Below are positions 33,885 through 53,657 of a stretch of DNA of 64,000 bases, piece after piece. Each line of letters opens with the position of its first letter. Position 1 is the stretch's first letter. Source of the stretch: Promethearchaeota archaeon (GTDB lineage Archaea; Asgardarchaeota; Lokiarchaeia; Sigyniarchaeales; SOKP01); contig JAUVNS010000016.1 of assembly GCA_030599585.1 (NCBI GenBank), positions 1 to 64,000 of the forward strand. The letters are read 5' to 3'. Below the pieces are notes generated by a model. The model saw only the letters and a list, made by a program, of their open reading frames with translations, did no database searches and was not told where the DNA came from. Made by a program: the position numbers and the translations under genes.

Positions 33885-33898
33885 TATTTAAAGGAAAA
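33885..33898 (-). promoter_or_regulatory. Pyrimidine-BRE promoter of the HhH membrane protein gene
   Basis: Minus strand TTTTCCTTTAAATA, 29 nt from the ATG. Confidence 0.7.
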
Positions 33899-40428: not shown

Positions 40429-42606
40429 TTACAATCCTCCTTCGTTTTTTACGTGTAAATAGATGTTTTTAACTACAAAATACAACTCTTCTGAAAGATC
40501 GATCGTTATGGCTTGAAAATCGTTGTTTTTGCCCCAATCGTTAATTTTTCTCTTCAGAAGCTTTTCTTCTGATTCGAACTGTTCTTCGAAGTCTACGAAG
40601 TCGAACAGCGACGCTATGAGTTTATACTTTGTACTGAGCAGAGCGTATTTTTTTAGGGTTGCGATTCTGTCAAACGTTCGGGGGTCTATTATTTGGACTA
40701 ACGCTTTATCAAATAAGGTTAAATCGAGTATAGACTTTACTGTTGTAAAAGGTATTCCGTCTTTCTGAAACTTTTTTCGCAGACCAAATTTTACGGGAAA
40801 GGAAACGTTAATTTTTACTTCTGGTTGGCTGCTAACCGGTTTACTTGGCAATTCTTGGGAAAAGGAATGTAAACTCGATTGCACTTCCTTTTTGTTTGCG
40901 TTCTTACTAAACTTGGGAGGTTGTGCTGGTTTATTGGTATCCGATGTGCTTACAGGCTGCGGCTCTTCAATAGTATCAATCGAAATATCGGAATAGGCGG
41001 TCTGAAGTTGTTTTTCTCCTTTTAAGTTCACGTTCATTTTTTTAAGCTTCGTTAAAGCTATGTGCATGTAAACTTCGTCGTGTGTGCCCTTACAATAAAG
41101 GATAATTACTTTACCCTCTCGATGACGAGCGGTCCTTCCTTTTCTTTGGATAAACCGTATTTCCGAAGCTACTACGTCGTAAAACACTACAAGGTCGCAC
41201 TCTGCAATGTCTAACCCTTCCTCACCAACGTTAGTGCTAACCAAAATGTTATACTCGCCTTTCTTAAACATTTCTAATACTTCTAACTGCCTTTTCTGCG
41301 ACATTCCTTTGTCGTTTTTAGATTTAGTCGCTTGCCCTACGAATCGAGTTGGTTTAAAAACTAGACTACCGCTCGTTTCTAGCTTGATCGTTATATTTTT
41401 TACCGAATCTCGCAACTTCACGAACACTAGCACCCTCGAACTCGGGTTATTTTCAAATTCTTGGGCTAGTAAAGATTCGAGCGCGTAATATTTGGGATGG
41501 ACCAGATTCTCAGAAGAATATTCTTCGTTTTTTTTCAACTCGATAAATATCTGATTGAGCCTGTGATCGCTCACCAAAATTTTTAAGGCTTTGGAGCTGT
41601 TTTTCTTTCTAGCCTTGGCTTTCATCTTAGTTAAATAAATTAAAAGCACATCTAAGCCTTGTTGTTCTATTAATTCTAACATGTGATACAAAATCAAACC
41701 TTGTGCGTTTACCGATAGGGCGCTATAAGCCCCGGTTTTGTCTCCATCTCCTTTGATTATCCTCGTCAACTCGCTATTTAGCGTTAACAAATCTTTTCTA
41801 ATAATTTTAGCGTATAGCTTATCTGACTTCGTATTTATGAAACTAAGCTGAGAAAGGTATTGCAACCGCTCCTCCAAAAGAGATTGAACGGCGTAGTAAG
41901 TTTGGCCCATCAATTCGGTTAAATTAACCCCGATTTTGTAAATATCCATTGGTTTTAAATACGATTTCACGTCCAAGTCTTTTCGGGTGCGGGTGTGAAT
42001 GTTTTCTTTAGGAACGTAGAGGTTTTCGCAAAGTATCCGTATTTTTTCTTTCGAAGCGCCGGGACTTGCGGTTAACCCTAAGATCGCACCATCGGGATTT
42101 TGGTATTGGAATTCGTCGGCAATAAATGTGTAAGCGTAATCTCCTGTGGCGTGGTGAGCTTCGTCAAAAATAATTAAGCACGTATCCTTCAAAGAATATC
42201 TAAGATTTACTAAGTCGTTTCTTAGCGTTTGGGGGGTGTAAAAAATAATCTGGTTTTTTTCAAATAATACTGCTCTTTTCTCGGAGTTTATTTTTCCGGT
42301 TAAAACCACGAATAACTCCTCAGAAATCGTCATTAAATTTCTAAACGAGTCGTAATGTTGGTTAATTAAAGGTCTTGTTGGTGCTAAAACGAGTATTTTG
42401 CTCTTAGGAGGAAAGTTTTCTAGGGTGAGCGCTGCCACAAAAACCCCAATAATCGTTTTTCCAAGACCTGTAGGGAGGACTACTAGCGAGTTTTTGGACG
42501 CGCACTTTTTTGCTATATCGAGTTGATATTTTCTGCTTTCGATGTTATCTTGGCGTAAGTAAGAAGTAGTAATACCTTCTAGCTTGCTTTTCTCGGGTTC
42601 AATCAC
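40429..42606 (-). CDS. hef: Hef/FANCM/Mph1-like DEAH helicase with degenerate ERCC4 nuclease region
   Basis: RKYQ, LPTGLGKT, DEAHH, GLTASPG, HPK, RFVGQA, EEGLDI, QRKGRTAR; no ERKxxxD and no C-terminal HhH. Confidence 0.9.
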   Translation of the reverse strand: MIEPEKSKLEGITTSYLRQDNIESRKYQLDIAKKCASKNSLVVLPTGLGKTIIGVFVAALTLENFPPKSKILVLAPTRPLINQHYDSFRNLMTISEELFVVLTGKINSEKRAVLFEKNQIIFYTPQTLRNDLVNLRYSLKDTCLIIFDEAHHATGDYAYTFIADEFQYQNPDGAILGLTASPGASKEKIRILCENLYVPKENIHTRTRKDLDVKSYLKPMDIYKIGVNLTELMGQTYYAVQSLLEERLQYLSQLSFINTKSDKLYAKIIRKDLLTLNSELTRIIKGDGDKTGAYSALSVNAQGLILYHMLELIEQQGLDVLLIYLTKMKAKARKKNSSKALKILVSDHRLNQIFIELKKNEEYSSENLVHPKYYALESLLAQEFENNPSSRVLVFVKLRDSVKNITIKLETSGSLVFKPTRFVGQATKSKNDKGMSQKRQLEVLEMFKKGEYNILVSTNVGEEGLDIAECDLVVFYDVVASEIRFIQRKGRTARHREGKVIILYCKGTHDEVYMHIALTKLKKMNVNLKGEKQLQTAYSDISIDTIEEPQPVSTSDTNKPAQPPKFSKNANKKEVQSSLHSFSQELPSKPVSSQPEVKINVSFPVKFGLRKKFQKDGIPFTTVKSILDLTLFDKALVQIIDPRTFDRIATLKKYALLSTKYKLIASLFDFVDFEEQFESEEKLLKRKINDWGKNNDFQAITIDLSEELYFVVKNIYLHVKNEGGL

Positions 42607-43277: not shown

Positions 43278-46250
43278 TTAATTTTTAGAATTTCGCTTAT
43301 TTTTAAATATCTTAGTCCGAATTGTTTTAGAAGAACCAAGCATTGAGGTAGTAGCGACGCCCAACAGTCCAAACGCTAAGGGAGGCGTAAAGACCGCGTC
43401 TCCTTGGTATAATTCAGTTGAATCGGGGTCTGGATCTGGATCGGGGTCTGGATCTGGATTTGGGTTGGAATTAGGATCGACGTAATCGAAAGTTGCGTTG
43501 CAGACGAATTGGGAGTCCCCCAAGTAAGGATCGTTGAGAATAAATTCAAAATAATAGTTTCCGTAATAGGTGGGCGAGTAATCGAAAGTAAACGTCGAAC
43601 TTTCTAAGGAATGAGAGGAAAGCAAGTCAATTACGTCGACATAATCTCCATCGCGGTATACTTTTGCGTACATCAAGCCATCAAAGATCGGTTCGTCTCC
43701 TGAGATAAAAGCGTGGCGTCCATAGATATTTGCTTGGATGCGAGATTCGGTCTTTACTATCGAATACGAAAAGAAAGAATCAAATTCAGTAATAAAAGAG
43801 AACGGGAGACTCGCTTTTTTTATCGCTCCGTCGTACACGCATAAATCTCCTTCAACAACAGGATAATTACCGGTATCAATAGACACGTATACCATTTTCT
43901 GGTAAGTATAGTTGCCTAATTGGTCCAGTAGTATAGTTCCTAACTGTGTCGACTCGATTTTAACCGTAGTATATTGTCCAAAATCCGAAAGTACGAGGTT
44001 TACCAATTCGACGGAAAACAAGTTGTTGCTTCCTAAGCCAACCGCGTCGTAATAGGAAGCGCTCAATCGAACGGTGTCAGTTTTTGCTATTTCGCATAAC
44101 CACATAAACACATCGTGGTCCAAATCCTTTCTTTCAACGGTAACGTAAAATTCGTTGTAAGTATCAGAAAAGATGTTTTGAACGAGTAGGTGCGTTTGTT
44201 CTACGTCGAATTGAATATCTAGGGATAACAATTCCGAAATTTTGTAGCTGTAATAGAGATTTTTTGCGTTCGAATAGTTAAGGTGGTTTACAACGAAATT
44301 ACTAATTTTATTAGAGTCCAGATTATATTGTTCAGTCGAATCTAAAATAAATATAGTGTAGTACAAATTCTCTAAGATTAATTCTACGTTGTCAGAATAT
44401 TTAGCATCAAAAAATATCTCGGTTGGAGTTTCCACCAGATTTCTCGTAATATATGTCCCGAGCGCGGTTTTATCGAACCCTAAATCGGCGAAATATTGAC
44501 CTGTTATATTCCCTAGTCCAAAAAATTGACTGATAATTTCCATTGTTTGTATGGCGTAATAAGAATTCATTAGGTACACTAGGTCGTTTTTCCATTCGGA
44601 AGAAGAGTTAATATAAATGTTGATTAAAAACCCTCCAAAGTTATCTGCGTAGTTCGGATCGAGGAATTGAGAGTCGATAACGTCTTGTAAAACAGGATGT
44701 AAATCGTAAAGTGAGGCAAAGTCGTTTAATTTAAAAATTTTTTTCAACGAGTCAAGCATTTTGAAAATATTTTGGTGGGCGCTTATAGAATTGATTTCTT
44801 CTACGAATTCGTGGTGTCCAGCGGTGTCGTAATCGAAGGGATTCGAACGAAAACTTACCTTGTTTAGATTCATGCTGGTGCATGCGAAAAAATCGTAATT
44901 ACCACCACGATCTACCACAGTGCCTACGAGTAAGTCGTATATCGATTGAATGTTAAGTTCTCCAATTTTCCCGAAGTATTCGTAAGACTTCACTAGGTTA
45001 TAGAGCAAATCTACAGAAGCGTAATCCTCTGAAAGTAAAGAATATCCGCGTTCTTGAGCAAATAAGGTTATAAACAAAGAAATCTCGTCCTTATCACCTA
45101 ATGACAATTCAAATAGATCTCCCGTATTAGAAAGCGACCTTACAATTTGGAACGTATCGATAAGCTCGTGATATTTCACCGAAGTCGAAGCTTCCCAACC
45201 ACCGCGATAGTTTCGATTGTTAAGGATAAACGACACTACATCGCTTCTCGCAAAAGAAGTAAACCCCGTAATATCCGATAGTTCTAAATTAATCGCAGTA
45301 GCAACTATATTGGAATAATTGACCACCCACACAAAGTCGGAAAGATCAAAGTAAGCTCCTTCGGAATGATATAACGCTGTAAGGTGCGCGTGAAACTTGG
45401 TTTTATCTATGATATCTATATAACTACTTCCGAAAATTTCTAGGGTTTTTAAGCAATAGTAGGAAGCAAATTGGTTCGGTTCTGGCTCCAATAACGAGTC
45501 AAACATGACCTCGTTATCGTTATAAAAGCCTGAAGAAGAACTCAACGATTGCAAACTATCAATGTAGGAGGCTATATCGCTCCTTTCTTGGGAGTGTGCG
45601 TTCCAGTCAACGCCTAAAACGTCTAACGTAAGAACAGCGTAATAGGTGTTATCTGCAGTAGGGACTTTAAATCCTTCTTCTAACGAGGGATCGTAAGGTT
45701 GACCTATAAATCCATATAAATTTGGGTGATAACTATCCCAAATAAAATCAATCATATCGGCTATATCTATCGAATTAACAGTATTTAAAAGTTCCAACGA
45801 AAGAACTGCGTAGCAATTGACTTGTAAAAGCGTGGACAGAGGGTAATACCTACCCGGTATTTTTGAAGCGAAGTATCTATCAGAATTTTTATCCGAAAAA
45901 ATATGAGTGCCGGAGTCGTAAAACGATAAAATATAATCGGTTACAGCTTGTTGGTCAATATCCCCTAACTTTCCGATAGCGTCTAGGACATAAAGAGCGT
46001 AATAAGTCGCTTGAAGAGAATCCGAGTAAATCTGGAGGTAATAGCCGTAAGTTGCGTAATCGGCGTTTTTTGCGTCAAAAACTGATTGCAATATTTCGAG
46101 GTTCGAGACGTCAGATGTTGCCAACAAGTCAAAATTTTCGTTTTGTTTTTCACCAGGATTCGCGACAGATTTTATGCTTATTGTAGAAACATAAGCTAAA
46201 ACCACAATTAACACAACGCTAACTAAAACTAGATGTTTTTTCCATTTCAT
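43278..46250 (-). CDS. Cell-surface protein with prenyltransferase/squalene-cyclase-like repeats, Pro-Asp linker and C-terminal TM
   Basis: Signal peptide; repeats TYYALYVLDAIG, TYYAVLTLDVLG, SYYCLKTLEIFG, GGF, SYYAIQTME; (PD)n; TM plus basic tail. Confidence 0.85.
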   Translation of the reverse strand: MKWKKHLVLVSVVLIVVLAYVSTISIKSVANPGEKQNENFDLLATSDVSNLEILQSVFDAKNADYATYGYYLQIYSDSLQATYYALYVLDAIGKLGDIDQQAVTDYILSFYDSGTHIFSDKNSDRYFASKIPGRYYPLSTLLQVNCYAVLSLELLNTVNSIDIADMIDFIWDSYHPNLYGFIGQPYDPSLEEGFKVPTADNTYYAVLTLDVLGVDWNAHSQERSDIASYIDSLQSLSSSSGFYNDNEVMFDSLLEPEPNQFASYYCLKTLEIFGSSYIDIIDKTKFHAHLTALYHSEGAYFDLSDFVWVVNYSNIVATAINLELSDITGFTSFARSDVVSFILNNRNYRGGWEASTSVKYHELIDTFQIVRSLSNTGDLFELSLGDKDEISLFITLFAQERGYSLLSEDYASVDLLYNLVKSYEYFGKIGELNIQSIYDLLVGTVVDRGGNYDFFACTSMNLNKVSFRSNPFDYDTAGHHEFVEEINSISAHQNIFKMLDSLKKIFKLNDFASLYDLHPVLQDVIDSQFLDPNYADNFGGFLINIYINSSSEWKNDLVYLMNSYYAIQTMEIISQFFGLGNITGQYFADLGFDKTALGTYITRNLVETPTEIFFDAKYSDNVELILENLYYTIFILDSTEQYNLDSNKISNFVVNHLNYSNAKNLYYSYKISELLSLDIQFDVEQTHLLVQNIFSDTYNEFYVTVERKDLDHDVFMWLCEIAKTDTVRLSASYYDAVGLGSNNLFSVELVNLVLSDFGQYTTVKIESTQLGTILLDQLGNYTYQKMVYVSIDTGNYPVVEGDLCVYDGAIKKASLPFSFITEFDSFFSYSIVKTESRIQANIYGRHAFISGDEPIFDGLMYAKVYRDGDYVDVIDLLSSHSLESSTFTFDYSPTYYGNYYFEFILNDPYLGDSQFVCNATFDYVDPNSNPNPDPDPDPDPDPDSTELYQGDAVFTPPLAFGLLGVATTSMLGSSKTIRTKIFKNKRNSKN

Positions 46251-46438
46251 TATACTTCACGTAAAGTTTGTTACAAAAGCTTTGAAATACCCTTATACCG
46301 AGCGTTTATAAATAAAAAAGTGTAAAAAAATTTCGAAATCATAAAAGTAAAAATAGAAGGAGCACCATCAATTATATTATATTGAAACACCCTCACAATA
46401 AATTCTTTAGTAGCAAAAACCTGAAAATTGTATAAATT

Positions 46439-47716
46439 ATGACGGCACCAGTATTGACTACGGAAGCTGTAATGGAAGCTTTATCGAACAATTGGCAGCC
46501 AATAACAGCGTTAATATTTAAAATGCAAATAAAAGAAATGATGGACGCTCGTTTTTTACAAATTAAATTAAAGGATTTAGAGCGCAAAGAGTTAATTTTA
46601 GTTGAAACAAAATTGGGTAAAAAGCATTTCAGATTAAACGAATCAGTCGATATGGTTGTTGACGTTGAAGAAGATTTCGATATTGACACTATAAATTCGG
46701 ACGAACCAGACGTTTCCTACTCTCAAGGCGATTATCCCCGCTCTCAAGATAACATTGATTTTATTAATTCAGAAGTGAAAAATTTGCTTGAAAAAATTGG
46801 TAACATGGAAACCTTAGACGAAGATACATTGATAGATGTAGCTTTTAACATAATGGGTCTTAGCGATTTAGGAGACAAGTATCACAAACACGGTGATAAC
46901 CAGTTAGCGATGGGTTTTTACGAGAGTGCTCTTAAATTAGACGCCGCTTCTGGAGAAGATAAGAATTTCAGAAAATTTCTTTTTAAAGATATTGGTAATT
47001 TATTTTTCGAGGAAGGCAATCACCAAGAAGCTATAAAATATTACGAAAACGCTATTGGGTTGTCAATATTGGAAGAAGTTTCTCCTTTTAATCGAGAAAT
47101 TTTGTTCAATCTTGGAACATCGTATAGTAATATTAACCAGCCAGAGAAAGCTATTCTTTACTTTGAAAAATTAGCTGAACACGATCCTGAACTTGATATA
47201 CTTTGGAGCGCGTTAGGTCTAGCATATAGCGCTAATAAAGAATACGATAAAGCTGCCGATTGTTTTAAAATTGCACTTAAATTTAATCCTTCAGATGAGG
47301 ATATTATAGATAAACTAAATTTCGTTGTAGAACAAAAGAAAAAAAGCGAACAATTTGCTTTAGAAGATTTAGAAAATTCTCCTCAAGAACTTCAAGACGA
47401 AACTATACTCTCGTTATTGAAAAAACTAAACGATAAGTTTGGCGAATTAATTAAAATTAATGAATTTTCGACTACAATTCACATTAAATCGTACATAAAC
47501 GACCTAATTAAACCCTTTTTTGAAAAACCAAGCGACAGAAAGATTAAAAAACTTAAAAAATCTATTGAACAACACATAGAAGGTTGGCCCGAAGATAAGC
47601 GAGAAGAATTTTTCAACGAATATTTCAGGACCATAAAGCGATACGAAGAACTCCAACCGTCAAAATGGAAAAAGTATGGGTCAGCGCTCCTTAAATTAAT
47701 TCCCATTCTAAGTTAG
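46439..47716 (+). CDS. TPR protein with winged-helix-like N-terminus and a C-terminal domain shared with 18272..18916
   Basis: About four TPRs (IGNLFFEEGNHQEAIKYYENA, LGLAYSANKEYDKAADCFKIALKFNP). Confidence 0.85.
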   Translation: MTAPVLTTEAVMEALSNNWQPITALIFKMQIKEMMDARFLQIKLKDLERKELILVETKLGKKHFRLNESVDMVVDVEEDFDIDTINSDEPDVSYSQGDYPRSQDNIDFINSEVKNLLEKIGNMETLDEDTLIDVAFNIMGLSDLGDKYHKHGDNQLAMGFYESALKLDAASGEDKNFRKFLFKDIGNLFFEEGNHQEAIKYYENAIGLSILEEVSPFNREILFNLGTSYSNINQPEKAILYFEKLAEHDPELDILWSALGLAYSANKEYDKAADCFKIALKFNPSDEDIIDKLNFVVEQKKKSEQFALEDLENSPQELQDETILSLLKKLNDKFGELIKINEFSTTIHIKSYINDLIKPFFEKPSDRKIKKLKKSIEQHIEGWPEDKREEFFNEYFRTIKRYEELQPSKWKKYGSALLKLIPILS

Positions 47717-47809: not shown

Positions 47810-49084
47810 TCAACAAACCGATGGTGGACCGGTTGGGTTGTGATATCTCCATAGTTCGACTTTCACGCCCTCCTCATCCATATTACCTTTTTTGTTAGAT
47901 AAAGAAACGTCTTGAAAGTTCGTTGAATTATCGTTATTTTGATTTTTGGCAACTGAGGCTACTAAATATCCACTTACGTCTTTTACAACGAGGTAATATT
48001 CTTCGCTCTCGTTTAAGTTGTTAAACACTTGACTTGCGTCCCCTAAGATTATTTGAACTATGTCGTCGCACTGTTCCTCGCCTTCCGAAATCTCGCCAAG
48101 GTCTGTAAACGCAGGATCGAGCACGCCTAATTTGTTCATAACTCTTTTTAATAAATCAGCCGATTTTACGAGACTTACAAAACCCGGAACGTTAAGCCTT
48201 TGGATAACCCTTTTCTCGACTTGCCTGTGAATCGTTGACATTTTAACGCCTAAACGCTCGCAGATTGCGCTAACGCTCACTTCTTTTTTCTGAGAGCAGA
48301 GAAGCGTAATTGAAGTCACTAAACCCACTACCACGTCGTCCTTAGTATTTTTTATAACATCGTAAAACCTGTCAAGTATTCGTTTCGATTGGTAGTAGAA
48401 CGACATCCCCAAATTGAAGTGCTCGCTGACCTCTAAAATTCTTTCTTTTATGTATTGCTTGCGATCCCGCTCTTGATATTCGGGCCAAATGCGTATAATC
48501 GAAAATTTAAACGAGTTAAAATCGTTCTTGGAAACCTTGGACACCCCCAAAAGTTCTTTCTCGCTGATCGGTTTACCGTTCTCTTTGTAGTACGCGTAAA
48601 TAACGCAAGGCACAAGCATTTCAGCGCTTCTATATTTCGTTCCTTTTTCTAAACTCGCTCGAAATTGCTTGACCTTGCGAACAATTACCTCTACATCGCC
48701 TGAGGAGAAACCTAACGCGGTTAAAATTCGTTTTGCTTCTACTTTTACCGCAATATTAAAAGTTTCTTCGGTAGGTCGGGAAGCGTCTATCTTGCTTAAC
48801 CCTTCTAATTTAGCGGAACGTTGCATTCTTCTTCTTTCAGACCTAAATCCGATTTGGGTTTTTCCTAATACGGCGTACTGAACGATGTCTGCGTCGTACG
48901 GTCGGTGATATTCTAATTTTTGTATTTCTAATACTATTCCACACGCTCGACAAGTGTAACCTTCCCGGGTTTCTATCACGTCGGTAGAATTACACACGTC
49001 GCATTGATATTGCGACTCGAGACCTGAGACAATTTTTAACGATTTTATTTTATCAGCACTATGAGGCGTTGCCATTTTTTTCAA
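47810..49084 (-). CDS. Divergent transcription initiation factor IIB (TFB) paralog
   Basis: Zinc ribbon CDVC...TCRACGIVL; cyclin repeats (KGTKYRSAEMLVPCVIYAY); C-terminal HTH VSAICERLGVKMSTIHRQV; start could be ATG 49075. Confidence 0.85.
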   Translation of the reverse strand: MKKMATPHSADKIKSLKIVSGLESQYQCDVCNSTDVIETREGYTCRACGIVLEIQKLEYHRPYDADIVQYAVLGKTQIGFRSERRRMQRSAKLEGLSKIDASRPTEETFNIAVKVEAKRILTALGFSSGDVEVIVRKVKQFRASLEKGTKYRSAEMLVPCVIYAYYKENGKPISEKELLGVSKVSKNDFNSFKFSIIRIWPEYQERDRKQYIKERILEVSEHFNLGMSFYYQSKRILDRFYDVIKNTKDDVVVGLVTSITLLCSQKKEVSVSAICERLGVKMSTIHRQVEKRVIQRLNVPGFVSLVKSADLLKRVMNKLGVLDPAFTDLGEISEGEEQCDDIVQIILGDASQVFNNLNESEEYYLVVKDVSGYLVASVAKNQNNDNSTNFQDVSLSNKKGNMDEEGVKVELWRYHNPTGPPSVC

Positions 49085-49165
49085 CTCAGTTTTTTTATTG
49101 TAATCTATTTTTCTTTGATCGATATTTTCTTCCTTTTACTAAGAAAACTAAAATGGGGTGAGGCC

Positions 49166-49181
49166 TTTTTAAACCTTTCGG
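49166..49181 (-). promoter_or_regulatory. Canonical BRE-TATA promoter of the TFB paralog
   Basis: Minus strand CCGAAAGG-TTTAAAAA. Confidence 0.75.
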
Positions 49182-49615
49182 TTGCTAAAAAAATTTCACA
49201 AAAGGTGGAGTTTATAAACATAAAATGAAATTTTTACAAAACTATAAGATACTAAACATTGTTCACTACAGATTTGTAAAAAAAAATTGTGACGTGATCG
49301 CCTCCACGATCTGAATCCGAGAGAAGCTCGGTTGGACTGAGTCAGTCAAAATAAGGGTAAGTTTCTCAACCGAATTTTTCTTAAAATCAATATTTTTCTT
49401 GTTTGGTTATGCGATAAAAAGATACACTTTTTGATCAAAGTTCGTTTGTGAAACTTTTTTACTTTTTATTGCACTTTGATCTCTTTTTTTGAAATGATCT
49501 TTTTAAATCCCACGGATTTTTCCAAAAAATTTTTTACAATTTTTTTTCCTCCTGAAATTTTTTTTTAGATTAATTTTTTCTTTATATGCTTCCTTTGCGT
49601 GACCTAATTATAATC

Positions 49616-50380
49616 ATGATAATGTTATATATTTGGTTTTTCGCCTTGTTAGCTGCCTCCAGCGCAATTCGAGCCCTCTACGGGTTAGCACATACGCCCG
49701 GATACAAGTTGTTTTTTAACTTGATAGCCTTTGTTGGAGTGTTCGTTCACGAAGTAGCGCACTATATTGTGTCGCTCATTGTAGGTGGGAATCCCGGTAA
49801 AATTCGGGTGAAATATCGAAGTGAGGATAAAACGAGAATATCCCCTCACGGATCGGTCGGCAATCCGGAATTCAAAAGGCAATCGGTCCTACAAGCGTTC
49901 AGTATAAGTTTTGCCCCTCTTTTGGTGTCCACTTTACTGTTTATGTTTTGCTTAGACGTCGTCTTTCACATCCAAACCGATCTATGGGTAAAAGTAGTTG
50001 CTGTAGTTTTTGGCGTATCGTTAGTGTTTGGCTTAAAACCTTCGGGACAAGACGCGAAAATAGTCGGCTACGCGTATCAAAACGACCCTCGTTATTCGAT
50101 GTATCAGATATTTCTCCTAGTATTATCGGGAGTGATTATTTGGTTATTTGTAGATTTATATTTTATCATGCTACCGTTTGAGGTAATGTATTACGCCGAA
50201 TATATATTAATTCTAGTCGTATTTTACTTCGGACTAAAAGGTTTGTTTTGGTTAGCAGGTAGAATTATAGGTAGCGTAGCTAAAAAATTGGGAAAAGCTC
50301 AAGTATCGAGCCCTAAATTCCTTACCCGAAGAAGAAGGTTTAAATACGTAAAAGACCCTAACGAAAGAGAGGTGCAATAA
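49616..50380 (+). CDS. M50-like membrane zinc metalloprotease (probable start 49616)
   Basis: GVFVHEVAH, SFAPL, PSGQD; multiple TMs; TTTTCTTTATAT at 49576-49587 overlaps the ORF-track start. Confidence 0.8.
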   Translation: MIMLYIWFFALLAASSAIRALYGLAHTPGYKLFFNLIAFVGVFVHEVAHYIVSLIVGGNPGKIRVKYRSEDKTRISPHGSVGNPEFKRQSVLQAFSISFAPLLVSTLLFMFCLDVVFHIQTDLWVKVVAVVFGVSLVFGLKPSGQDAKIVGYAYQNDPRYSMYQIFLLVLSGVIIWLFVDLYFIMLPFEVMYYAEYILILVVFYFGLKGLFWLAGRIIGSVAKKLGKAQVSSPKFLTRRRRFKYVKDPNEREVQ

Positions 50381-50386
50381 TAAAAT

Positions 50387-50731
50387 ATGAAAGGATTTTG
50401 TTTAATCGCGATAATAGTCACAATGCTGATGTTTTACCAGAGAGAACCTATCTACACGGTAATTATAATCGGTATCGGTTTAGTATTGTATATCGTTTAC
50501 AAAGCAAGGAAAGGGGGTAACGGAATGATCGGAGCTTTTTTCAGTGGGAATCAATCGCGTCAAGACAACAGGTTGGACGATTTAATTGCTCTGATGATGC
50601 TCCAACAACTCTCTTCGACCAACTCTCAGAGCATGGGGGCGTCTGAGCAAATTTCCGAACAAGCTCGAAAACGACGGGAAGCAATCGAAAAGACGCAAAA
50701 AGAAACCTTAGATTTACTGGGCGGTGACTGA
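50387..50731 (+). CDS. Small two-TM protein with charged C-terminal helix
   Basis: Operonic spacing of 6 nt; GAGGTG RBS. Confidence 0.75.
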   Translation: MKGFCLIAIIVTMLMFYQREPIYTVIIIGIGLVLYIVYKARKGGNGMIGAFFSGNQSRQDNRLDDLIALMMLQQLSSTNSQSMGASEQISEQARKRREAIEKTQKETLDLLGGD

Positions 50732-50733
50732 AA

Positions 50734-51438
50734 TTGGATACCTTTGACATAGCTTCCTTACTAAATTTGCTAAAAGAATGTAGAATCGTTTCGATCTCGG
50801 GAGAATCAGGCACCGGAAAAACTACCTTAGCTTTACAGTTGGTCGCTTCTGCGTTAACTCAAAAGGGCGGGAGCGAGAACCAAGCTTTATGGGTCCAAGC
50901 CAGCGAACAATTTCCTAAAAAACGTCTTCAAGTACTTTTTAAAAATTCTCACGATAGCTATAAAGCCCTCCTAAAAAGAATTTTTGTACATCCAGGAACG
51001 AATCCTTTTTTGGATTATCAAACCCAATCTATCTTTTTTGCGAACTTAATATCTGTAATTTTACCGTTTAACACTAAATACATCGTAATTGATAACATAT
51101 CCCACTACCTAAGGTTTGCTGCTTCGTGTTGCTCCGATGTAAAGCAAAAGATGGCGCTCTTAGACGCTTTTTTTAGCTCACAACTATTTCCTCTTATAAT
51201 GCGGTGTCTAAGGGAAGAGATCGTTCTTGTGTTAATACACGAAGTCTCTTTCGACCCTGCGCTAGGAAAAAACCAACCATTTTTTAACAAGTTATACTCG
51301 AGGATCAACAGCGTAAACGTGAGCTTGTCAAAACCGTTCGGCTCTAAAGTCAAATTGATGGAACTTGCCTCGCGGGACGAGTTAATTTCGAAAGGCGTAA
51401 GATACATGATCAAAAACAAAGGAATTTCTATAATTTAA
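50734..51438 (+). CDS. RadB/RAD51-paralog-like ATPase
   Basis: GESGTGKT, EQFPKKRL, IVIDNIS; no N-terminal HhH domain. Confidence 0.85.
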   Translation: MDTFDIASLLNLLKECRIVSISGESGTGKTTLALQLVASALTQKGGSENQALWVQASEQFPKKRLQVLFKNSHDSYKALLKRIFVHPGTNPFLDYQTQSIFFANLISVILPFNTKYIVIDNISHYLRFAASCCSDVKQKMALLDAFFSSQLFPLIMRCLREEIVLVLIHEVSFDPALGKNQPFFNKLYSRINSVNVSLSKPFGSKVKLMELASRDELISKGVRYMIKNKGISII

Positions 51439-51484: not shown

Positions 51485-51498
51485 TTTTCCTTTAAATA
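51485..51498 (+). promoter_or_regulatory. Pyrimidine-BRE promoter
   Basis: TTTTCCTTTAAATA, 22 nt before ATG 51520 (leaderless spacing). Confidence 0.7.
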
Positions 51499-52363: not shown

Positions 52364-53657
52364 ATGAGAGATGATAACAAAAAAATTATGTCAGACTTAG
52401 ACCAAGTAAAATCGATCAACGCCCGACAGATCAAACTCCTTCAAGAAAGCGGGATTAGCACGGCTGAAGCGCTTGCAATGTCCCCACACAACATCATATC
52501 AGAGATCGACGGATTAGGCGGTAAAACGGCGAAAAAATTAATTTGGAACGCGAGAAACGCCCTTGGAATGACAGAATTCACGACTGCTTACGATATCGAC
52601 GAGAATACGGAGTATATTACCACCGGTTCTTCTGAACTAAACAGGATTTTAGGCGGTGGGTTCCAAACGGGTAAACTTACCGAAGTATACGGTCCTTTCA
52701 AAAGCGGGAAGACGAATTTGGCCCATACCATTGCGGTAACCATCCAACTTCCAAAGAAAAAAGGAGGTTTGAACTCGGCTGTTGCTTACATTGACACGGA
52801 AAACACGTTTGCTAAGGAAAAAATCAAAAGAATCGCCAAGAGATTTGGACTCGATCCAAAAAAAGTACTGTCCCAAATATTTCACGCCAGAATATATTCT
52901 TCAGACCACCAGATGCAAATGATTCAGAAGGCAGAAACCCTATGCAAGACGAGGAACGTGCGACTTATCGTGGTAGATAGCTTAATGGCTTTAATGAGAG
53001 TTGAATACATAGGAATTGGAATGCTCGCTCGTCGTCAAGGAGTTCTCAACAACATGATACACGGGCTTTCTCGAATTGCAGAGACTTACAATTGCGCTAT
53101 TTTACTTACCAATCAAGTATCGACCAAAATGATGGGTATGTTTTCAGGAAACGACGCCATAGGGGGAAATAGTGACGAGATATTTCGTCAGTCACTTCTA
53201 AATAGTAGCCCATGGTTGCCACTTCCGTGTCATGTTTAAAACAAAAGGATTTTCAGCAAATAACTCTTTGAAGCGAAGAGCAGTGATAGTAGACGCGCCC
53301 GACTTACCACCAGACGAAGCTGAGTTCTATATTACAGCCGTAGGTATTGCTGACACAGAAAAAGGAGAAGTTCCGGAAGCGAAAGGGTTGGACTTCGAAG
53401 TAGAAGCGTTGTACGAGGAAGAGCAAGTTGTAGAAGAAGTGTCTATTGAAGAAAGTACCGATTCAGGAGAGTATTCATTAATAGACGTAAAAGGGATAGG
53501 AGCCGGAATGGCAAAAAACCTCATTAAAAACGGAGTTACTTCGGTTGACGCCTTGATTGAATCCGATCCCGAACAACTTGCCTCCAAAATTAGCGGTATC
53601 TCCTCTAAAATGATAAATGATTGGCAAACAAACGCGATTGCTCTTATAAACGCCTAA
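52364..53657 (+). CDS. radA: RadA recombinase with extra C-terminal HhH domain; join(52364..53170,53202..53657), 420 aa
   Basis: N-terminal HhH, ITTGS, GPFKSGKT, YIDTENTF, LIVVDSL, LARRQ, TNQV; removing 53171-53201 gives DAIGGN|IVAHGCHFRVMFK...DAPDLP and fuses the two ORF-track ORFs. Confidence 0.92.
53171..53201 (+). other. 31-nt putative bulge-helix-bulge/loop (EndA-type) mRNA intron in radA
   Basis: AGTGACGAGATATTTCGTCAGTCACTTCTAA; central helix GGAA/UUCU, bulge AU^A, inner stem GUGAC/GUCAC, 3' cut AA^A; the predicted cuts equal the frame-restoring deletion. Confidence 0.75.

Follow-up and report, generated by a model that had tools for sequence, protein, structure and literature searches.

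A divergent TFB paralogue with a rewritten recognition helix on a multi-copy Lokiarchaeia island rich in a pyrimidine-type promoter element

Introduction

Can a paralogue of TFB, the basal transcription factor of archaea, take on the role of an alternative sigma factor? The question is raised by a gene, here named TFBL, on a 64,000 nt stretch of DNA from a Promethearchaeota archaeon (assembly GCA_030599585.1, contig JAUVNS010000016.1, positions 1 to 64,000; the window, whose coordinates are used throughout). A first-pass annotation, made from the sequence alone, had described TFBL as a TFB paralogue whose helix for reading the B recognition element (BRE) was rewired, and as a candidate master switch. 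The question is directly testable here because the candidate factor, its altered helix, a candidate cis element at the BRE position and a defined set of target genes are found together. The source assembly is labelled G000 and the contig carrying the window C12.

In the usual picture, archaea have one TFB or a few that are nearly equivalent, and transcription is tuned by the repressors and activators that act on these. TFB paralogues with regulons of their own are known, namely TFB3, Sulfolobus TFB2 and the haloarchaeal TFBs; to our knowledge, clear cases of paralogues with a distinct promoter sequence code are scarce. Among prokaryotes, it is the Asgard archaea whose transcription apparatus is most closely related to that of eukaryotes.

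Results

TFBL is a complete, divergent paralogue of TFB

The coding sequence of TFBL lies at 47810–49075 on the (−) strand (421 aa plus stop). It starts at the ATG at 49075, and all 30 orthologues compared have the same N-terminal 'MAT'; a TTG located three codons before it (49084) was rejected as an artefact of the listing of open reading frames (ORFs). The GC content was about 0.33–0.40 all along the window, with no compositional break at TFBL. From the N terminus the protein comprises a TFIIB-type C4 zinc ribbon (48917–49009, (−); residues 26–56 of P0001), a shortened stretch that is probably equivalent to the B-reader and B-linker (48776–48916, (−); residues 57–103), a first cyclin repeat (48476–48775, (−); residues 104–203), a second cyclin repeat with a helix–turn–helix (HTH) at its end (48191–48463, (−); residues 208–298) and a C-terminal extension (47813–48190, (−); residues 299–424). 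The four ribbon cysteines (C28, C31, C45 and C48) were invariant in the family, and these, the reader/linker stretch, the KGTKYRS loop of the first repeat and the HTH were invariant or nearly so across 30–67 sequences. The KGTKYRS loop, which is invariant, has the GRS/KGR loop of TFB/TFIIB as its counterpart in the alignment.

Relatives of TFBL numbered 296 in a word-indexed search (about 425 aa) and formed 405 clusters at 50 % identity in an exhaustive one. Nearly all were unnamed, TFBL records in public databases were annotated as hypothetical, and a literature search found no paper describing the family. The single protein gave no match to the Pfam TFIIB repeat (PF00382) at E ≤ 1; Pfam returned a faint cyclin match and Zn_Ribbon_TF (PF08271) at 19.1 bits, under the cut-off of 29, an NCBIfam scan of TFBL gave nothing useful, and phmmer against the PDB sequences found no match. 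The source genome holds 10 canonical TFB genes, all of which scored above Pfam's cut-off. Across 67 diverse members of the TFBL family, Zn_Ribbon_TF was matched by 41 (E ≤ 0.01; best 2.7e-8) and PF00382, weakly, by six. A profile of the family searched against the PDB sequences matched human TFIIB (4.8e-8), Pyrococcus woesei TFB (5e-6), Brf2 (2e-5) and the ribbon plus first repeat of yeast Brf1 (3.6e-5). When the family was aligned by hhalign with the genome's ten canonical TFBs, the alignment (Prob 99.7, E 1.3e-25, 280 columns) covered the whole of TFB, residues 1–309.

The structure of TFBL was modelled with AlphaFold2 (AF2) from 67 diverse sequences; a first model from 30 close orthologues was poor (predicted local distance difference test, pLDDT, 53) and was superseded. 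The pLDDT of the later model was 95–98 over residues 100–320, which include the second repeat and its HTH. The model superposed on 1d3u_B, the P. woesei TFB from the TBP/BRE/TATA complex, with a template modelling (TM) score of 0.77 in Foldseek and, by VIA-align, Z 17.7 and a root-mean-square deviation of 2.7 Å over 197 of 201 residues; Brf1 gave Z 15.9, Brf2 Z 13.6 and cyclins about 11–12 over one repeat. Identity to solved structures was 12–19 %. Prediction of a complex of the TFBL core (residues 95–325 of A2) with the genome's TBP gave no answer (score 0.00) and weighs neither way.

Because the family searches, hhalign and the superposition of the model agree, the ribbon and both cyclin repeats are real and stand in the TFB arrangement. 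TFBL is a complete, fast-evolving, divergent paralogue of the basal factor TFB. The first-pass annotation had reported a zinc ribbon and two cyclin repeats, which the invariant cysteines, the hhalign probability and the fit to 1d3u_B bear out, and it had called TFBL a full-length paralogue, unlike the truncated TFB3, in agreement with the presence of both repeats and the HTH.

Recognition helix, B-reader and C-terminal tail

The recognition-helix segment of TFBL reads GVKMSTIHRQV (48218–48250, (−); residues 279–289), the canonical form being GVTE(V/A)T(I/V/L)R.RY. In the hhalign alignment ...ICERLGVKMSTIHRQVEKRV of TFBL stood opposite ...ISLAAGVTEATIRNRYKEIV of the canonical TFBs, GVKMSTIHRQV against GVTEATIRNRY, column for column, and therefore Ser takes the place of Val and His that of Arg, as had been read from the letters alone. 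We take the Val and Arg at these positions to be BRE contacts, as in the P. woesei 1D3U and human TFIIB–BRE structures. Since the consensus of the TFBL family is [KR]MSTIQxQVK, His is specific to a subgroup and Gln is typical. The canonical helix VTE[VA]T[LIV]R.R.K was kept in 10 out of 10 canonical paralogues, so that only TFBL among the genome's 11 TFB-type genes departed from it; its HTH keeps the fold but not the BRE-contacting residues of canonical TFB (VTEVT.R.RY).

The B-reader motif EWR.F is not literally present in TFBL, and to this extent the earlier statement that no canonical B-reader is recognizable stands. A homologous stretch does align, however, with the conserved LEYH-RPY opposite PEWRAF and LG-KTQIG ... 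ER opposite HDKGLSTMIG (KTQIG with GLSTMIG). The loop is about 12 residues shorter than the canonical one and the region was modelled at low pLDDT; judged from this alignment, the reader would be more accurately termed degenerate and shortened than absent.

Canonical TFB ends at about residue 304 and TFBL therefore has some 120 residues more, which agrees with the extra C-terminal tail of about 100 aa noted in the first pass. The tail opens with an additional helix that is conserved (GFxSLVKSxxLL); a variable, acidic linker and three predicted strands follow, and the last residues, ...NPxGPPxxC, are again conserved. It was modelled by AF2 at low confidence, and an Atlas search with the tail gave no usable look-alike. 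A cysteine just before the HTH (C275; 48260–48262, (−)) was invariant across the 67 diverse members, and GPPxxC is conserved at the C terminus (47813–47830, (−)); these might constitute a metal or redox site. The extension of Brf2 carries a redox-sensing cysteine.

Compared with canonical TFB/TFIIB (P. woesei; 1D3U/1AIS), TFBL has the same layout of ribbon, a probable reader/linker equivalent, two cyclin repeats and terminal HTH, and retains the Arg-Ser loop of the first repeat. It differs in having no Pfam TFIIB match, a reader loop shorter by about 12 aa, Ser and His/Gln for Val and Arg, an extra conserved helix and a tail of about 100 aa, and in being island-borne, multi-copy and confined to one family.

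A T-run promoter motif marks the TFBL island

TFBL lies in an island, described below, that is present on C12 and in further copies on contigs C49 and C20 of the same assembly. The promoters of the source genome were compared through 440 TTTAWATA boxes upstream of genes, from which no general BRE was derivable. TTTTTC, TTTTCC or TTTTCT directly preceded 43 of these boxes and TTTTTT two; C was thus favoured in the hexamer (TTTTTC 17 and TTTTCC 17 versus TTTTTT 2) despite a C content of 18 %. The exact string TTTTCCTTTAAATA occurred 12 times in 4.85 Mb, five of them on C12, the expected count being about 0.4 by a hand estimate from base composition. The 12-mer TTTT[TC]CTTTA[AT]A was found about 22 times per 100 kb on C12 and C49 versus 2–4 elsewhere; the island 12-mers were intergenic, directed towards a gene and 35–90 nt before its ATG, whereas those elsewhere were mostly inside ORFs. 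C12 alone has about 20 distinct motif sites. At 53 motif-aligned sites, A was present in 83 % at +35 from the first T, with a pyrimidine preceding it. The resulting geometry has the hexamer at −35 to −30, which is the BRE position, the TATA box at −29 to −22 and an initiator-like A at +1.

Among genes with a free upstream region, the motif TTTT(T/C)C-TTTA(A/T)A preceded 37 of 92 homologues of island genes and 16 of 2814 other genes (about 40 versus 0.6 %). The odds ratio was 118, with a p value of about 1e-46 from a Fisher test that overstates independence because the three island copies are paralogous, and the reversed-pattern control gave 0 and 2.

Five of the 16 motif-bearing genes outside the island flank distant TFBL-like genes on C9 and C10, and another two lie beside a canonical TFB and a paralogue of RadA on C15. 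The former loci (C9:326327–335963 and C10:6367–8076; L057 and L058) encode three distant TFBL-like proteins of 484, 619 and 569 aa with the two-repeat core, the C10 protein having three TFIIB-type zinc ribbons. They also encode PNKP, an XPD-like helicase, an mTERF-repeat protein, an NAD-dependent DNA ligase (LigA) and a radical-SAM protein, several with a T-run promoter, and no gene besides the TFBL-like one is common to these loci and the island. The C15 locus (C15:39898–48028; L059) encodes a 318-aa TFB with a canonical helix, which has T-run promoters on either side and a winged-helix protein and another RadA paralogue close by; it may represent one more type of island, equipped with a different TFB.

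Around TFBL itself, the T-run promoter TTTTTC-TTTATATG of a divergent membrane/ATPase operon lies at 49575–49588 (+), and is found at the same position in C49, C20 and the orthologous loci, confirming the pyrimidine-type promoter previously ascribed to the divergent neighbour. Because this promoter spans 49575–49588, the listed ATG at 49586 (264-aa membrane protein) lies within the TATA box, and translation of the first gene probably begins at 49616, the position used in the 254–255-aa orthologues, which gives a near-leaderless mRNA. An exact TTTTCC-TTTAAATA promoter at 51485–51498 (+) stands 35 nt before a gene for a 124-aa zinc-finger protein, in leaderless geometry, and a further TTTTCC-TTTAAATA promoter lies at 33898. 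On the other side, a variant, TTTTTT-A-TTTATAAA, lies at 46305–46319 (−), about 68 nt before the gene for a 990-aa surface protein, which in the other island copies is preceded by TTTTTC-TTTATATA.

The upstream region of TFBL lacks the motif

Common to all versions of the TFBL upstream region was that the T-run motif was missing. The putative promoter of the window's copy, CCGAAAGG-TTTAAAAA (49166–49181, (−); 98 nt before the ATG), resembles a purine-type BRE plus TATA box fairly closely. It is not conserved: its string, CGAAAGGTTTAAA, is unique in the source genome, and the paralogues and orthologues are without it. A different conserved element is present upstream of the C49 (93 % identical) and C20 (69 %) paralogues and at 11 or more orthologous loci, namely ~CAAATC-TTCAAATAGCAAACTGGTGATCTT, about 87 nt before the ATG (C49, C20 and loci L009–L022).

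The element ~TTCAAATAGCAAACTGGTGATCTT contains the Shine–Dalgarno-like GGTGATC and occurs in the source genome only upstream of TFBL genes, the window's copy being without it. A TFBL-like upstream element at C47:74700 was discarded, as no TFBL gene follows it. The replaced upstream region is found in the same island copy that has a 425-aa tetratricopeptide-repeat (TPR) gene.

Motif and TFBL in other genomes

At orthologous loci in other genomes, down to 43 % identity, the motif stood before the membrane operon, the surface-protein gene and the zinc-finger gene, and not before TFBL. The frequency of the 14-mer near TFBL was 7–26 times the genome mean in four of six loci, two of them in G210 and the others in G083 and G207. 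In a survey of 301 Asgard genomes, the family with TFBL was the only one in which motif counts rose above those of the reversed control, and within it the values were 2.0-fold for TFBL-positive genomes and 1.4-fold for apparent negatives (Mann–Whitney p 0.014, uncorrected for relatedness).

Three genomes, G234, G252 and G150, were considered as TFBL-negative keepers of the motif and were rejected, since in each the contig ends at the expected position of TFBL. The flanking island genes and motifs are present in all three, which suggests that the assembly broke at a repeated gene and that TFBL is not truly absent.

Gene content and copies of the island

The island extends over about 12–67 kb of C12 (roughly 55–70 kb) and is present in at least three copies in the assembly: on C12, on C49 together with small contigs, and at 234–294 kb within the 411-kb contig C20, with protein identities of 62–98 %. 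TFBL is flanked by two divergent units, an arrangement conserved in metagenome-assembled genomes (MAGs) down to 43 % protein identity. The divergent operon (49616–51438, (+)), whose synteny was seen in the three genome copies and in MAGs and whose products were assigned with Pfam, encodes membrane proteins of 254 and 114 aa and a RecA/KaiC-like P-loop ATPase of 234 aa; the gene for the 124-aa zinc-finger protein is on the same side of TFBL. Downstream of TFBL are genes for the 990-aa surface protein, a 195-aa protein, a superfamily 2 (SF2) helicase and a zinc-ribbon protein. The surface protein (43278–46250, (−)), a conserved neighbour, is predicted to be secreted and membrane-anchored, with prenyltransferase-like alpha/alpha toroid repeats.

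Further genes of the island encode a paralogue of RadA (the housekeeping RadA genes, on C27 and C24, are separate and score better), a FEN1/XPG nuclease, an RPA-like protein with an oligonucleotide/oligosaccharide-binding (OB) fold, a Hel308-like helicase, a membrane protein with a helix–hairpin–helix (HhH) motif, ThiF-like and radical-SAM proteins and a protein of 1275 aa. By its predicted gene content this is a conserved, multi-copy recombination/DNA-transfer island. No tRNA or Rfam feature marking an integration site was found in the window, and the island has no Orc1/Cdc6 gene, the four of the genome lying elsewhere.

The 425-aa TPR gene (46439–47716, (+)) between TFBL and the surface-protein gene is present in the C12 copy only; in its place C49 and C20 have a 180-aa ORF. 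The island RadA paralogue (52364–53657, (+)) is split into ORFs of 291 and 141 aa here and in C49, whereas C20 has a single ORF of 382 aa. In the 634-aa SF2 helicase (40429–42333, (−)) the matches to the DEAD/ResIII profiles, at residues 10–92, begin only in the middle of the profiles, so that the motor may be truncated at its N terminus or its start miscalled.

The source assembly, at 4.85 Mb, is larger than others of its genus (2.6–4.1 Mb) and has a contamination of 8.9 % (CheckM-type), and C12 and C49 are near-duplicates (72–98 % protein identity). Given this contamination, C12 and C49 might represent co-binned strains and not paralogous islands of one cell. Better assemblies also have several TFBL copies, and in G210 two are on one contig.

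Taxonomic range of TFBL

The only GTDB family in which full-length TFBL was found is that of the window (Lokiarchaeia); there, 54 of 69 sampled genomes, the source genome included, had a recognizable copy or fragment. There were up to four full-length copies per genome, plus fragments and copies with internal stops. The sister family gave one weak relative. The named MAGs with TFBL are Promethearchaeota/Promethearchaeia and 'Hermodarchaeota'. TFBL is an island-borne, multi-copy gene of one Lokiarchaeia family and not a general Asgard feature. A viral origin has no support, because no relative was found in the IMG/VR viral contigs.

A TFB-like ORF of G213 (452–467 aa) was not within a homologous island, and a search of the five f2/f24 genomes with one query found no VirB4-like homologue.

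Discussion

The unusual promoter common to genes of the island in which TFBL lies suggests that this protein may have a role like that of a bacterial alternative sigma factor. The reading that we favour, though we would put it a little short of an even chance, is that TFBL is an island-dedicated initiation factor that would use the host's TBP and RNA polymerase (RNAP) and prefer TTTTYC through its rewritten helix, its own gene being read by the host. It builds on homology, fold, the replaced helix, the geometry of the motif and its association with the locus, and from these we infer binding to TBP, DNA and RNAP, specificity for the hexamer and a cascade. TFBL would be made from a promoter without the island motif and, because that promoter is without it, be transcribed by the host machinery. 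It would then join host TBP on TATA boxes, as TFB does, and recruit RNAP via its zinc ribbon, and the rewritten HTH, [KR]MSTI[HQ]xQV, would prefer TTTT(T/C)C in place of the BRE directly upstream of TTTA(A/T)ATA. With about 20 such promoters per island copy, the outcome would be a private promoter code for the island and a two-step switch like that of an alternative sigma factor. A more far-reaching claim is somewhat more doubtful: that, of all archaeal TFBs, TFBL is the first with a BRE-reading helix re-engineered for TTTTYC, in effect a purine-rich BRE flipped in place, so that a mobile or accessory island of Lokiarchaeia would have gained a private code and a sigma-like two-tier switch.

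The change of specificity and the two-tier master switch proposed in the first-pass annotation are plausible in the light of the rewritten helix, the hexamer at the BRE position and the motif-free upstream region of TFBL. Several observations weigh against them. The exact motif is missing from 60 % of the island genes with a free upstream region, and the TFBL loci on G210:C6 and G171:C23 show no motif enrichment. No covariation of helix and motif was seen: one motif accompanies both H-type and Q-type helices, the helix of orphan copies is no different, and distant TFBL-like proteins with other helices (QSSLH and QSTIY) also stand beside this motif. The shortened B-reader loop makes full initiation competence of TFBL uncertain. 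The promoter described in the first pass as textbook canonical is indeed present at 49181–49166, but is peculiar to the window's copy.

A further such observation comes from G267, which is 99 % complete and in which canonical TFBs only were found. In its island variant on C31 (about 35 % identity) the membrane- and surface-protein genes are adjacent, 205 nt apart, with no TFBL between them. Five exact motifs are nevertheless present in 19.5 kb, and the two central promoters retain the T-run and lose the C. Genomes that keep the motif without the paralogue had been named beforehand as evidence against a dedicated factor, and G267:C31 is the sole genuine TFBL-less junction of this kind; it weakens a strict dependence of the motif on TFBL, as one locus in a MAG. 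The anticipated co-occurrence thus holds in part, the motif being nearly confined to loci of the TFBL family (37/92 versus 16/2814), with G210:C6, G171:C23 and G267 as exceptions.

These exceptions bear on the main rival explanation, that another regulator, such as a host DNA-damage factor of the Orc1/Cdc6 type, reads the hexamer and that TFBL, though full-length, is a secondary activator or bridge like TFB3. UV- and 4-nitroquinoline 1-oxide (NQO)-inducible promoters of DNA-exchange and repair genes in Sulfolobales carry A(N)TTTC at −39 to −44, just upstream of the BRE; Orc1-2 binds this element and TFB3, which is truncated and without a DNA-binding domain, acts downstream (PMC5817253, PMC6061795). 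The regulon of TFB3, Orc1-2 and the DNA-damage-responsive element (DDRE), with ups pili and Ced import, is similar to the present system in that a TFB paralogue is tied to DNA-exchange and repair genes and in its short T-rich element ending in C. This resemblance of hexamer and gene content, the motif kept in the TFBL-less variant of G267, the absence of covariation and the four Orc1/Cdc6 genes of the genome all favour a separate reader. The Sulfolobus element is upstream of the BRE, however, whereas the hexamer of the TFBL island abuts the TATA box at −35 to −30, at the BRE position itself, and the island has no Orc1/Cdc6 gene. TFB3 acts beside TFB1, downstream of Orc1-2, and lacks the HTH that in TFBL is structurally intact, invariant and basic. 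We consider a separate reader unlikely, if a serious contender.

It is improbable that TFBL is a decoy or repressor that ties up TBP or RNAP, for example as a factor of the element against the host or a rival element, or that it is a cyclin-fold protein of island DNA transactions, like eukaryotic ORC6. The short reader loop would suit such a role, as would the 120-aa extension with an invariant C-terminal motif and no fold assignment, the multiple and in some genomes pseudogenized copies, the orphan copies away from any motif and the weak ORC6-type matches of a few members and in the PDB sequence search. The ribbon, linker, both repeats and HTH are nonetheless all kept and strongly conserved, the best matches are TFB and TFIIB, well above cyclins and ORC6, and the fixed place of TFBL between two divergent motif-bearing units fits a local role in transcription. 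Least probable of all is that TFBL is one more TFB paralogue and the T-run/TATA combination an inherited strong-promoter variant read by canonical TFBs, their association being linkage: the ten canonical TFBs, the non-independent promoters of paralogous island copies, the lack of a derivable general BRE and the canonical-helix TFB between motif promoters on C15 would allow it, but the motif also marks the C9 and C10 loci (PNKP, XPD, LigA), whose sole link to the island is a TFBL-like gene, prefers C over T in the hexamer at 18 % C content and is conserved at 43 % protein identity.

Set beside known systems, an island-dedicated TFBL would have both precedents and new features. Paralogous TFBs steer RNAP to promoter subsets in Sulfolobus (TFB2) and in the TFB families of Halobacterium, and the BRE of TFB2, which serves a cell-division regulon, is similar to that of TFB1, only the spacing being different (bioRxiv 10.64898/2026.09.06.749720); in TFBL, by contrast, both the recognition helix and the sequence at the BRE position depart sharply from the canonical. 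Brf1, Brf2 and Rrn7/TAF1B also combine a TFIIB-like core with a C-terminal extension. The TFBL core is nearer to TFB/TFIIB than to the Brf proteins (Z 17.7 versus 15.9 and 13.6), no likeness to the Brf extensions was detected in its tail, which was modelled at low confidence, and its narrow taxonomic range argues against an ancestral link. Bacterial alternative sigma factors (of the extracytoplasmic function (ECF) type, or encoded by phages and elements) offer an analogy only, without homology, in that a dedicated factor stands beside genes with private promoters and is itself differently promoted. On comparison of the sequences, TFBL differs from the known paralogues in its replaced recognition helix, the pyrimidine element at the BRE position and the conserved C-terminal extension, on a multi-copy island.

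For this family of Lokiarchaeia, the TFBL system would control, or at least accompanies, a second set of recombination genes, comprising a RadA paralogue, a RadB-like ATPase, FEN1, an RPA-like protein and a Hel308-like helicase. If control is borne out, a two-tier switch resembling that of a sigma factor would operate inside a eukaryote-like transcription apparatus.

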